Below are positions 2,981-6,678 of a stretch of DNA of 17,422 bases, one piece after another; positions within the stretch are counted from its first letter, which is position 1, and each line of letters starts with the position of its first letter. The stretch lies in IMG/VR virus record IMGVR_UViG_2667527582_000002; one strand, given 5' to 3'. The notes beneath the pieces were generated by a model. That model searched no databases. It was not told the DNA's origin and saw only the letters and a list, made by a program, of their open reading frames with translations. Origin of the DNA: a virus. Lineage: Duplodnaviria; Heunggongvirae; Uroviricota; Caudoviricetes. A program made the translations under genes and the position numbers.

Positions 2981-3040
2981 TCTGTTTAGTATTAGCATCA
3001 ATTTCTCATCAGATGCTATTCAACAATACAAATTACCCAT

Positions 3041-3066
3041 AAACCTCGTTTTTACGGGGTTTTGTT
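3041..3066 (+). terminator. probable rho-independent terminator after the gns-like gene
   Basis: Stem CCUCG/CGGGG (one G-U pair), 6-nt loop, followed by TTTTGTTATATTT. Confidence 0.4.
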
Positions 3067-3273
3067 ATATTTAAACATTACCGAATAGGTATAAATCTCG
3101 ATTGTCGATGGTATTGGTTGTGTGACAATACCTAGTCTTTCCGGTATGCCTGAAGAGAATACAAACGACAGATTATGTAAGGGAAACGCGCTGAATCTTT
3201 AACTCTTTCATGCTGAGTGATTTGACGTTATATTTTTAGCCGTAAGTGAAGAGCAAACGCATGGAGCGACAAA

Positions 3274-3480
3274 ATGCATAAAGATCAATACACTGATGCC
3301 CCCTCCCAGGAGCAGGTTCGTGTAAAAACTATGCTTAATAGCACCATTTCGATGGGTTACCCGGATGTTGTAATTGCATGTATAGAACATCAAGTGTCTC
3401 TGGAAGCATTCAGGGCAATTGAGGCCGCGTTAGTAAAGCACGATAAGAATACGAAGGATTATTCCCTGGTGGTTGACTGA
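3274..3480 (+). CDS. hypothetical small protein (68 aa), orphan moron ORF just upstream of cos
   Basis: ATG preceded by GGAG 8 nt upstream. The translation ([18 protein letters not shown]...) is not low-complexity. No recognisable motif. Confidence 0.4.
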
Positions 3481-3834
3481 TCACCATAACTGCTAACCAT
3501 TCTGACCATTTCACAAGTGACAGAGTCAATATCGTATTCTGTCACTGTCAGGCTAATACAGCAATGCAATTCAACTACAGCAATGCCTCGTATTTAGGTG
3601 AATTTACAATATCGTCCAGTTCGGATGCCGGCTGCATTTCTGAAGATAAGGCATTTCGGTTCTCGTATTTTCCCCTCATGCTCGTCAGTCCTGCGCGTAG
3701 TAAGAAACAGGACACTCACACTAATTTGTGTGGGCATGCTGTGATGTCCTTCTGAATTATCCCCATGCCATTATGTAAAGCTCTGTTTCAGATGCTCGTC
3801 ACGGTTGTCAGGCTGTCGGGTCCTCCCAGTGGGG

Positions 3835-3870
3835 GTCCCTGCCACGGGGCGGGAGCGTCGCGGAAAAAGG
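3835..3870. other. putative cos site (cosN-like cohesive-end sequence), about 185 bp upstream of the small-terminase start
   Basis: CACGGGGCGGGAGCGTCGCGG at 3843-3863 resembles the lambda cos junction as I recall it (TACG-GGGCGGCGACCT-CGCGG). That gives a putative 12-nt cohesive end GGGCGGGAGCGT at 3847-3858 with 9/12 identity. The downstream ~170 bp is AT-rich, like cosB, and its distance to Nu1 matches lambda. Confidence 0.5.
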
Positions 3871-4042
3871 CTAGTTTTTGCATTTCCATGGCGGCGGCAG
3901 CATGTTTGGTAATTTATTGATAATTAAAAGTTATTTCTCTTTTCAGCTGTACAATATTTTTTTCTCCCTGTCATTAGACTAGTTTGCAATTAATTGAAAT
4001 ATATAAATAAACCTGATTTTCACCTGCCAGATGGAGTTGCTT

Positions 4043-4570
4043 ATGTCAAATGTGAGCGGGATCGGTGATGCTTATTACTGGAGTGTTTTTAAAATCGCCG
4101 AGGCCTTTGGGCTTCACTGGGACACAGTAAAAAAACGGCTCCTCGCGGCCAACACTCCTGTGGCTGCGACTGTCAGGGGGAACCCCGTTTACGCCCTGCA
4201 GCATGTCGGGCCTGCCCTGTTTAGTGTGAAGCATGAGGCAGCAGACTCTGTTCATGATCCATCCCGTATGGAGCCGAAAGAGAGAAAGGACTGGTACCAG
4301 TCGGAAAATGAAAGGATCAAGCTGGAAAAGGAGCAGCGAAAACTCATCCCCGTTGATGAAGTAGTCATCGTCTATTCGTCCATGAGAAAGGCTGTCGTCC
4401 AGGTTCTGGAGACAATTCCGGATGTTCTTGAACGCGATTGCGCCCTGACTCCTCAGGCCGTTGGCGTTGTACAGCAGGCCATTGATGACCTGCGATACAC
4501 TCTTCAGGAAAAATCCTACGAGGCTTGTGCTGCTGAATTAATTCCTGATGAGGAAGGAGAGAGTCTCTAG
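4043..4570 (+). CDS. terminase small subunit (lambda Nu1-like; NohA/NohD-type)
   Basis: Lies immediately upstream of the large terminase and downstream of the cos-like sequence. Start at ATG 4043 with GGAG 6 nt upstream. The N-terminal HTH-type assignment and the Nu1 family call rest on position and recalled similarity, with no conserved motif checked. Confidence 0.75.
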   Translation: MSNVSGIGDAYYWSVFKIAEAFGLHWDTVKKRLLAANTPVAATVRGNPVYALQHVGPALFSVKHEAADSVHDPSRMEPKERKDWYQSENERIKLEKEQRKLIPVDEVVIVYSSMRKAVVQVLETIPDVLERDCALTPQAVGVVQQAIDDLRYTLQEKSYEACAAELIPDEEGESL

Positions 4571-4578
4571 GAGGAATA

Positions 4579-6678
4579 ATGGGTTTTTCATCAGCCCGAA
4601 ATTTGGGAAGGGACATATCGGCAGGATTTTCCCCACCACGTCGCATGCCGATTTCGGAGGCTGTTAAAAAATTCATGCGTGTTCCCAAGGGGGCTGGTAA
4701 CTCGGTGCCATGGGATCCTGAACTGACACCCTACATCATTGAGCCCATGAACTGCCTGGCATCGCGTGAATACGATGCGGTGATTTTTGTTGGTCCTGCG
4801 CGAACAGGGAAGACCATTGGTCTGATCGATGGATGGATTGTCTATACCATCGTTTGCGATCCTTCGGACATGCTCGTTGTGCAGATGACCGAAGATAAGG
4901 CCCGCGAGCATTCAAAAAAGCGCCTCGACAGAACGTTCAGAAGCAGTGCGGCGGTAAAGAAAAGAATGAGTCCACGTCGTAATGACAATAATGTCCATGA
5001 TAAGACGTTCAGGGATGGCTCGTTCCTTAAAATTGGTTGGCCCTCGGTCAACATTATGTCGTCGTCGGATTACCGGTTTGTCGCCTTAACCGATTACGAC
5101 CGTTTTCCGGAGAATATCGACAGCGAGGGTGATGGTTTCTCCCTGGCCTCAAAACGTACCACCACATTTATGTCCGCCGGGATGACTCTGGTGGAGAGCT
5201 CGCCGGGACGTGACATCTGCGACAGCAAATGGCGACGTAAGTCGCCTCATGAAGCGCCACCGACGACTGGTATTCTTTCCCTTTACAATCGTGGTGACCG
5301 CCGCCGCTGGTACTGGCCATGTCCGCACTGCGGTGAATATTTTCAGCCAGCCATGGATGCCATGACCGGCTACCGTAATGAACCGGATCCCTTTAAAGCC
5401 AGTGAGGCGGCGTATCTACTTTGCCCGCACTGCAGCGGCATTATCACGGCGGAGAAAAAGCGTGAGCTCAATAGTGCAGGAGTCTGGTTGCGTGAAGGTC
5501 AGGTCATTGATTGTAACGGCAACGTTTCCGGTGAACCGCGCCGCTCCCGTATCGCCAGTTTCTGGATGGAAGGGCCAGCTGCTGCGTATCAGACCTGGGC
5601 GCAACTGGTTTACAAATTACTGACTGCAGAACAGGAGTATGAAGCGACAGGAAGTGAAGAAACACTCAGGGCGGTTATCAACACCGACTGGGGATTACCT
5701 TATCTTCCCCGCGCCAGCATGGAGCAACGAAAAAGTGAACTGCTTGAGCAGCGGGCAGAGCCAGTTCCTTCCCGCAGTGTGCCGGATGGCGTTAATTTTC
5801 TTGTGGCGACAGTGGATGTGCAGGCGGGACGTCATCGCCGTTTTGTGGTTCAGGTAACGGGCTATGGCAGCCGTGGCGAACGCTGGATTATTGATCGTTA
5901 CAACATCACGCAGTCATTGCGCGGTGACAGCGACGGGGAGAGCCAGCGAATTGATCCGGCCAGCTATCCGGAAGACTGGGATGTCCTGCTGACGGATGTT
6001 TTTCATAAAAGCTGGCCGCTGGCCTCCGATCCTTCTCAACAAATGCGACTGATGGCAATGGCGGTGGACTCCGGCGGTGAAGACGGGGTCACTGATAATG
6101 CCTATAAATTCTGGCGTCGTTGCCGTCGTGATGGCCTTGGTAAACGTATTTACCTGTTTAAGGGCGACAGCATCCGGCGCGCAAAACTGATCACCCGTAC
6201 ATTCCCTGATAACACCGGACGAACGGGCCGACGGGCGCAGGCCGCAGGTGATGTGCCGCTCTGGCTTCTTCAGACGGATGCACTGAAAGACCGGGTGAAT
6301 AACGCGTTATGGCGTGACTCGCCAGGTCCCGGCTATGTGCATTTCCCTGACTGGCTGGGGAGCTGGTTTTACGACGAACTGACGTATGAAGAGCGGAGCA
6401 GTGACGGGAAATGGAGTAAGCCGGGTCGCGGTGCCAACGAAGCTTTTGACCTGATGGTGTATGCCGAGGCTCTGGTCATTCTGCATGGATACGAAAAGAT
6501 CCGCTGGCCGGATGCACCGGAGTGGGCGAGCCGGGAAACCTGGCTGGAGTGTGTCCCGGACAGTACCGAACCGTCATCCTCACCGGAACCGGTATCCACG
6601 CCTGTTAAAAAACAAAAACGGAAGAAAACAGTAACTGACGATGTTAACCCCTGGCTGACTTCCGGAGGATGGTTATGA
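4579..6678 (+). CDS. terminase large subunit (lambda gpA-like)
   Basis: 699 aa, AGGAGG 6 nt upstream of the ATG. Walker A motif VGPARTGKT, and a CPHCG motif as in lambda gpA. Position is between Nu1-like and W/portal genes. Confidence 0.92.
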   Translation: MGFSSARNLGRDISAGFSPPRRMPISEAVKKFMRVPKGAGNSVPWDPELTPYIIEPMNCLASREYDAVIFVGPARTGKTIGLIDGWIVYTIVCDPSDMLVVQMTEDKAREHSKKRLDRTFRSSAAVKKRMSPRRNDNNVHDKTFRDGSFLKIGWPSVNIMSSSDYRFVALTDYDRFPENIDSEGDGFSLASKRTTTFMSAGMTLVESSPGRDICDSKWRRKSPHEAPPTTGILSLYNRGDRRRWYWPCPHCGEYFQPAMDAMTGYRNEPDPFKASEAAYLLCPHCSGIITAEKKRELNSAGVWLREGQVIDCNGNVSGEPRRSRIASFWMEGPAAAYQTWAQLVYKLLTAEQEYEATGSEETLRAVINTDWGLPYLPRASMEQRKSELLEQRAEPVPSRSVPDGVNFLVATVDVQAGRHRRFVVQVTGYGSRGERWIIDRYNITQSLRGDSDGESQRIDPASYPEDWDVLLTDVFHKSWPLASDPSQQMRLMAMAVDSGGEDGVTDNAYKFWRRCRRDGLGKRIYLFKGDSIRRAKLITRTFPDNTGRTGRRAQAAGDVPLWLLQTDALKDRVNNALWRDSPGPGYVHFPDWLGSWFYDELTYEERSSDGKWSKPGRGANEAFDLMVYAEALVILHGYEKIRWPDAPEWASRETWLECVPDSTEPSSSPEPVSTPVKKQKRKKTVTDDVNPWLTSGGWL

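Follow-up and report, generated by a model that had tools for sequence, protein, structure and literature searches.

The closest described relatives of the gene analyzed here are lambdap79 of phage lambda (NP_597782.1) and YbcW (b0559) of the cryptic prophage DLP12 in Escherichia coli K-12, whose proteins are identical. lambdap79 occupies 47738-47944 as the last annotated gene of the lambda map and is dispensable for plaque formation in lambda. According to a preprint of September 2026, it is the first trigger to have been identified for the Vulcan NADase defense, a single-protein system in which an NIR (DUF4062) NADase is fused to HEAT repeats (bioRxiv 10.64898/2026.09.04.749371). All of the sequenced lambda-vir escapers of Vulcan (7/7) had deleted lambdap79, probably via recombination with Qin; co-expression of lambdap79 and Vulcan is toxic, and the lambdap79 ORF alone from a plasmid suffices. 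The authors of the preprint conclude that lambdap79 is the Vulcan activator (10.64898/2026.09.04.749371).

In a map of essentiality made by CRISPRi, lambdap79 came out as “essential” (EOP 1e-4) even though it is known to be non-essential, and its opposite-strand neighbors bor and lambdap78 came out as non-essential; the authors of the map warn of polar effects in general. We infer that the drop on lambdap79 is a polar effect on the late transcript, which would place the lambdap79 ORF inside the late transcript that crosses cos to the terminase genes.

The K-12 gene ybcW is transcribed from the cryptic prophage DLP12, and its transcription is regulated: an FNR site has been mapped by ChIP, ArcA activates the gene, its level is 8.9-fold lower in a pdhR mutant, Hha binds it and induces it 17-fold, and it rises 1.8-fold under microaerobiosis. 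The ybcW and ylcI transcripts overlap convergently. No ybcW phenotype was found in the literature retrieved.

The gene at 3274-3480 of the stretch of DNA described below is almost certainly a protein-coding, accessory member of this YbcW/lambdap79 family (PHROG 657). Taken as a whole, it is likely to be the local copy of YbcW/lambdap79, standing as the last lambdoid gene before cos. The sequence family is already known, as is, since 2026, the action of its lambda member as a defense trigger; the result is a correction more than a discovery, and the remaining novelty lies in the native role, the placement before cos, and the conserved 3′ block. For lambda’s last gene, the analysis provides handles in the form of (i) a 0.5-kb cassette, (ii) a position before cos that is shared by three terminase types and one satellite, (iii) a variable tail joined to a constrained helical core, and (iv) the 3′ block.

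The Window and Its Gene

The window, i.e., the whole stretch of 17,422 nucleotides that was analyzed, carries the right arm of a Qin-like lambdoid prophage together with head and tail genes, in the order rrrQ, rzpQ, cspI, ynfQ, ynfN, gnsB, the gene at 3274-3480, cos, terS, terL, and portal onward. The right arm of Escherichia phage mEp460_ev081 has the same organization, with lysozyme, an Rz-like gene, a cold-shock gene, ynfN, gnsB, and the family gene. An Rfam cspA thermoregulator (RF01766, 109.8 bits) at 1761-2177 covers both the leader and the beginning of the cspI-like gene, which is followed by YmcF-like, YnfN, and GnsB genes, making the moron island a cold-shock-type cluster. An intrinsic-terminator-like hairpin with a T-run, detected by the terminator scan at 3041-3062 on the plus strand, follows gnsB.

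The ORF at 3274-3480 (plus strand) has an ATG start and 68 codons and encodes a 7.7 kDa protein with a pI of 5.45 whose sequence is not of low complexity. A Shine-Dalgarno GGAG is read at 3263-3266 on the plus strand, 7 nt before the ATG; five diverged alleles, those of the window, lambda, Tritos, PhiR63_1, and E. ruysiae, all have the ribosome-binding stretch GCATGGAGCGACAAAATG unchanged. The GGAG had been pointed out in the sequence-only reading and stands up to this comparison.

The same reading had placed the gene immediately upstream of cos. It is the last ORF before cos, but not literally adjacent, as cos lies about 366 nt away. The predicted cos core at 3818-3858 (plus strand) was located by aligning the window with cos regions of the DLP12/lambda type, of PhiR63_1, and of the Salmonella island. 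It contains GGGTCC cosQ-like motifs at 3818-3824 and 3833-3839 and, at about 3847-3858, a cosN-like 12-mer, GGGCGGGAGCGT, in the context ACG|GGGCGGGAGCGT, all on the plus strand. Lambda has the corresponding arrangement GGGTCC…ACG|GGGCGGCGACCT; the 12-mer matches lambda GGGCGGCGACCT at 8/12 bases, and the window cos is assigned by similarity. From the stop codon of the gene to the predicted cosN-like site there are 366 nt, and about 170 nt separate the latter from terS at 4031. The small terminase subunit (4031-4570, plus strand) is of the DUF1441 type (Pfam DUF1441, E 5e-43; phrog_141, E 1.3e-63), and the ORF list gives a large terminase of 699 aa at 4579-6678, also on the plus strand.

Family Membership

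The window protein matches the phrog_657 profile from residue 1 to 68 (profile 1-68/68) with an E-value of 4.6e-48. A tblastn search against sequenced phages matched 40 records. Identity is 100% to proteins of Escherichia phages mEp460_ev081 and HannyBb, 80-90% to those of PhiR63_1, PhiR30_1, and Tritos, and 79% to lambdap79, for which the tblastn match spans 47738-47941. No difference is known between the window protein and the PHROG 657 proteins of mEp460_ev081 and HannyBb, and the window thus provides a further instance of the family. The earlier description of the gene as an orphan with no recognizable similarity fails on these matches. A clear homolog among the housekeeping genes of phages had been named there as an outcome that would speak against the reading; the clear, known phage gene that was found is not a housekeeping gene.

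An exhaustive phmmer search of 1.84 billion cluster representatives returned 122 matches. Among those examined, only two look like true distant members: P0146 (63 aa, 56% identity, from a single Logan sample) and P0208, a 68-aa protein of Salmonella enterica serovar Glostrup with 39% identity. Both match phrog_657, and a search seeded with P0208 found no match besides P0208 itself. The motif YPDVV-ACI…(V)S-E-F-AIEA-L occupies invariant columns in two alignments (A4 and A5) that include P0146 and P0208; the window protein carries this core motif and falls within the length range of 63-68 aa. Although strongly diverged at the DNA level, the two distant members preserve frame, length, and motif. 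Around P0146, neither cos nor terS was found nearby.

Scans of the window protein against Pfam and NCBIfam found no family model, and PADLOC, a library that holds defense systems, gave no match. The sole weak match in these three scans is to XFP_C (E 0.043), far below the cutoff. A profile search against PDB sequences found nothing up to E = 10.

Coding Evidence and the Variable N-Terminus

The first 6.5 kb of the window contain 52 ORFs of at least 40 aa, and the length of the ORF at 3274-3480 by itself therefore has no significance. The substitution pattern is more telling. Between the window and lambda, codons 16-68 have accumulated 7 synonymous and 5 non-synonymous changes, with non-synonymous sites being 3.6 times more numerous than synonymous ones, which corresponds to a dN/dS of 0.17; residues 16-68 are identical at 48/53 positions (91%). 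Homologs at 39-56% identity keep the motif. We take 3274-3480 to be a genuine protein-coding gene under purifying selection because of this conservation, and its description as a plausible small gene, made before any database search, is thereby confirmed.

The N-terminus behaves differently. Codons 1-15 show 2 synonymous and 10 non-synonymous changes relative to lambda (dN/dS about 1.2), and 10 of the first 15 residues differ. This segment (3274-3318) is the most diverged of the whole cassette, at a distance of 0.33-0.40 from lambda and Tritos and of 0.15 from PhiR63_1, where the neighboring non-coding DNA differs by 0.02. The divergence is compatible with relaxed constraint; diversifying selection would be the other reading, and the numbers are too small to separate the two. 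Positive selection on the N-terminal tail was rejected as an explanation, since a dN/dS of about 1.2 from 10 versus 2 changes fits relaxed constraint on a disordered tail.

A Mobile Cassette with Conserved Non-Coding Parts

DNA homology with lambda is confined to the region from about 3112 to about 3625, and the flanks on either side are unrelated. Homology with the Qin prophage of K-12 (ynfN-gnsB) stops at about 3115, and the terminator-like hairpin at 3041-3062 lies just upstream of the left boundary. Judged by these boundaries, the gene travels as a cassette of ~0.5 kb (3112-3625) that recombines independently of its neighbors and yet keeps its place between the lysis/moron region and cos-terS. 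The absence of terminal repeats led us to reject a transposon- or MITE-like element as its origin.

The 5′ part of the cassette (3112-3273, plus strand) is a leader that possibly includes a weak promoter. It is 74% identical to lambda overall and 81% identical in the proximal 59 nt. The only promoter candidate upstream of the gene is a conserved −10-like TATATT at 3229-3234 with a poor −35, and a consensus promoter scan upstream of the ORF found no plus-strand sigma-70 site.

The 3′ non-coding part (3481-3625, plus strand) contains a 9-bp hairpin with arms at 3516-3524 and 3538-3546 and a 13-nt loop; the stem is invariant in five alleles, and the loop is variable. A tandem 11-mer, TACAGCAATGC, follows at 3557-3567 and 3576-3586. 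The sub-block 3580-3625 is identical to lambda at 43/46 positions, a conservation above that of the synonymous sites of the ORF (dS 0.24 against lambda). As RNA, the 3′ block folds better than its shuffled counterparts do (z = −3.4). It has no U-tract, the terminator scan came up empty past the stop codon, and the 3′ block is not a terminator. Rfam found no match over 3000-4100 even at E <= 1, and the Salmonella locus does not have the 3′ block.

The conservation of the non-coding cassette parts on both sides of the ORF, the exceptional conservation of 3580-3625, and the folding of the 3′ block would all suit an account in which the ORF is incidental and what is conserved in this part of the late transcript is a non-coding element, DNA or RNA. 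We regard this account as scarcely credible. It is largely refuted by the coding substitution pattern over codons 16-68, by the Salmonella and Logan homologs, which keep frame, length, and motif despite DNA divergence, and by the toxicity with Vulcan of the plasmid-expressed lambdap79 ORF alone (10.64898/2026.09.04.749371).

Position before cos

Synteny was analyzed over 126 fetched loci plus the window, i.e., 127 sequences, many of which are redundant. Across this set, the upstream neighbor is gnsB or a divergent DUF1398 gene, ybcV, and downstream lies cos followed by a TerS of the Nu1 type or of either of two DUF1441 subtypes, which are 41% identical to each other. All combinations of upstream and downstream neighbors occur. 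The family gene is the last before cos-terS in every intact locus; the 10 loci without a nearby terS comprise the P0146 contigs and cases of IS insertion, of prophage deletion, or of an assembly that is chimeric with lambda DNA. In the window, the gene is co-oriented with the late genes. The layout recurs in lambda, DLP12, PhiR63_1, and those IMG/VR loci whose sequence continues downstream, and in Tritos and mEp460_ev081 the family gene is the last same-strand gene before the end of the record. The earlier suggestion of accessory cargo beside the packaging site is right; the gene lies at the extreme end of the right arm.

Relative to lambdap79/YbcW, the window gene shares the length of 68 aa, the ribosome-binding site, the orientation, the 5′ and 3′ non-coding flanks, and the last place before cos. 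It differs in its surroundings: upstream lies gnsB, whereas lambda and K-12 have the divergent DUF1398 gene with an FNR site; downstream lie cos and a DUF1441-type TerS, whereas lambda has Nu1; and the opposite-strand DUF3950 gene (ylcI) of lambda and K-12 is absent from the window. In lambda, this DUF3950 gene corresponds to an unannotated homolog of K-12 YlcI (phrog_949, 100% amino acid identity) on the minus strand at about 48112-48306 (about 3613-3807 of the fetched locus L002); the match begins 171 nt past the end of the lambdap79 match.

The cassette is also present or absent between otherwise homologous genomes. In the Qin prophage of MG1655, 54 bp replace the 613 bp of lambda (47528-48140) that hold the cassette, between flanks that match lambda at 84% identity over 505 bp and at 98% over 362 bp. 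On this comparison the cassette is a presence/absence polymorphism that Qin exactly lacks, and the homologous flanks make recombination of the Vulcan escapers with Qin plausible. The gap (4990-5048 of the fetched Qin locus, L127) lies between ydfO (DUF1398) and ynfO (DUF3950). A role as antitoxin of GnsB was rejected on co-occurrence: lambda and DLP12 have the gene without gnsB, and Qin of K-12 has gnsB without the gene.

One outlier lies in a satellite-like setting. In an island of Salmonella Glostrup (L006/L007, 1000-6860), genes for DUF4222, a DUF927 primase, PerC, phrog_3255, an E-like capsid protein, and a D-like decoration protein accompany a YbcW-like gene, which has a terminator-like hairpin and a clear cosQ/cosN within about 60 nt downstream. 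After cos comes a short Nu1-like gene of 111-124 aa that resembles Rpp. The layout fits the published late-zone organization of PICI and helper-embedded satellites, and the order of the capsid genes, E then D, is the reverse of that in lambda.

A fixed position before cos in phages and in a PICI-like satellite, last before cos-terS in every intact locus and some 60 nt from cosQ/cosN ahead of an Rpp-like gene in Salmonella, would be explained if the protein or the 3′ DNA block aided cos recognition, termination (on the cosQ side), or the terminase. Such a packaging accessory is very unlikely, given that the gene is dispensable in lambda, that viable escapers delete it, that Qin-type phages exist without the cassette, and that the cos linkage of the satellite can be passive co-capture. 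It also shows no co-variation with the TerS types: identical alleles pair with both DUF1441 subtypes, which argues against protein-terminase co-variation, and close alleles pair with Nu1. The comparison with Rpp of Gram-negative PICIs is instructive here. Rpp, like the YbcW family, is small and sits beside a lambda-type cos, and the Salmonella member adjoins an Rpp-like gene; however, Rpp is a basic, winged-helix DNA binder that is homologous to the N-terminus of Nu1 and is encoded downstream of cos, whereas YbcW-family proteins are acidic and all-helical, are encoded upstream of cos, and have no similarity to Nu1 or Rpp. A role like that of Rpp or Nu1 was rejected on fold and charge, the predicted fold not being a winged helix-turn-helix.

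Expression

The window gene is probably part of the late transcript, to judge from the lambda orthologue and from synteny. It would belong to the Q-dependent late transcript, which begins at the lysis genes, crosses cos, and continues into the terminase genes, and its product would therefore be made late in lytic growth.

The behavior of ybcW in K-12 raises another prospect, namely that the gene is a lysogenic-conversion moron, made mainly from the prophage under low oxygen or pyruvate to the benefit of the lysogen, with its late-operon transcription being incidental. Expression of K-12 ybcW from DLP12, its standing as an FNR target, its dependence on ArcA, PdhR, and Hha, and its 1.8-fold microaerobic rise all speak for this prospect, as do the company of classic moron neighbors (cspI, ynfN, gnsB, and bor), the terminator-like hairpin upstream at 3041-3062, and the presence/absence polymorphism, a feature of morons. 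The local sequence is less accommodating. The K-12 FNR site maps between ybcV and ybcW, some 180-200 bp ahead of the start codon and beyond the cassette; lambda, DLP12, and Tritos have this site, and the window does not. FNR regulation of the window copy was rejected on the absence of this site, matches to the FNR consensus numbering 14 against 10 ± 3 expected by chance. Moreover, the ORF is neither preceded by a consensus promoter nor followed by a terminator, the literature retrieved holds no ybcW phenotype, and lambda-vir, which is unable to lysogenize, expresses the gene enough to trigger Vulcan (10.64898/2026.09.04.749371). We consider the moron account unlikely, though it is the most serious of the rivals to expression and action during infection.

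Predicted Structure and Possible Function

The AlphaFold model, computed from an alignment that includes P0146 and P0208, has a mean pLDDT of 78, rising to about 90 for residues 11-50, with helices at 12-21, 30-38, and 43-62. Residues 1 to about 11 are modeled with low confidence and evolve fast. A shallower alignment gave a pLDDT of 69.5 with the same topology. All family members are acidic, with pI values of 4.7-5.5. The protein is accordingly predicted to consist of a flexible tail at the N-terminus, followed by a three-helix bundle of acidic character. The model has no informative structural relative: comparison with BFVD and the PDB yielded no functional hint for the window protein, and the resemblance to the three-helix bundle of the staphylococcal protein A B/Z-domain (PDB 6k65_A), at only 15% identity over a generic fold, is no evidence of homology or common function. 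Of the homology and structure searches proposed in the sequence-only reading, the former thus led to PHROG 657, and the latter was uninformative.

A three-helix bundle of this kind may serve as a small protein-binding module. The YbcW/lambdap79 protein would engage a host or immunity protein during infection, acting as an accessory factor for host takeover or counter-defense, and in cells that carry Vulcan the HEAT-repeat sensor would recognize the YbcW/lambdap79 protein, with depletion of NAD+. The fold and acidity of the protein suggest this protein-binder model, as do the dispensability of the gene, its presence/absence polymorphism, and the trigger phenotype. We offer it tentatively, at somewhat under an even chance, as a small accessory protein that engages a host or immunity protein and is sensed by the Vulcan HEAT repeats. 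Activation of Vulcan could be indirect; the family, the structure, and the defense libraries give no functional hint; and host binding leaves the strict position beside cos unexplained. Regulation of the K-12 gene by FNR, ArcA, and PdhR suggests a role in the lysogen rather than in infection, yet the FNR site is absent here, and the window ORF has no convincing promoter of its own and no flanking terminator.

Vulcan activation and dispensability have been demonstrated for the lambda allele only. The window allele, whose residues 16-68 agree with lambda at 48/53 positions, probably shares both properties. With its 91%-identical core, the window prophage, together with its induction, is predicted to be sensitive to Vulcan-type immunity. 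A link to defense had been anticipated in the sequence-only reading as anti-defense cargo; the gene is indeed relevant to phage defense, but the only experimental link, that of lambdap79 with Vulcan, is as a trigger and not as an anti-defense factor.

Packaging of lambda DNA finishes with the right end, which is then the first part to pass into a new host. This suggests a bolder model in which placement in the last 0.4-0.8 kb before cos is itself functional: YbcW/lambdap79 would be a “first-in” counter-defense or host-takeover factor that is guarded by Vulcan-type sensors, and the 3′ hairpin with 3580-3625 would form a cis element for expression or for passage of the late transcript across cos. 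We rate this model as improbable.

A functional analogy may be drawn with triggers of the Ocr/PARIS type. Ocr of T7 has a known anti-restriction function and is reportedly sensed by PARIS, an abortive-infection defense. lambdap79 is likewise small, acidic, and dispensable, and it alone switches on a suicidal effector. There is no sequence or fold relation between Ocr-type triggers and YbcW/lambdap79, and anti-restriction activity is a property of Ocr, with none known for the family.

Distribution and Contamination by Lambda DNA

The exact window protein is found on at least 1000 public contigs and in very many E. coli genomes. Some part of a 931-bp query (3100-4030) is matched in 2798 of 5426 complete E. 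coli genomes, 759 of which cover at least 80% of the query. With about half of the complete E. coli genomes matching the region, this is one of the commonest uncharacterized lambdoid genes. On the sequences searched, the family is very common and taxonomically narrow, being made up of Escherichia/Shigella lambdoids and rare enteric outliers.

A broad taxonomy was rejected, as the non-Escherichia matches among genome contigs are lambda contamination. About 30 species-representative assemblies of unrelated bacteria contain lambda DNA (L010-L043), on contigs of about 48.4-48.5 kb or about 3.5 kb; the contaminated genera include Streptomyces, Pseudomonas, Flavobacterium, Enterococcus, and Cohnella. 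In size, the contigs of about 3.5 kb fit the nanopore control strand. Nearly all of the aligned “divergent” phmmer matches are frameshifted, noisy reads of lambda control DNA, as are many “divergent” family members in protein databases. The right end of lambda is also present in “Campylobacter phage CJLB-4” (MW057783.1, 48,361 bp).
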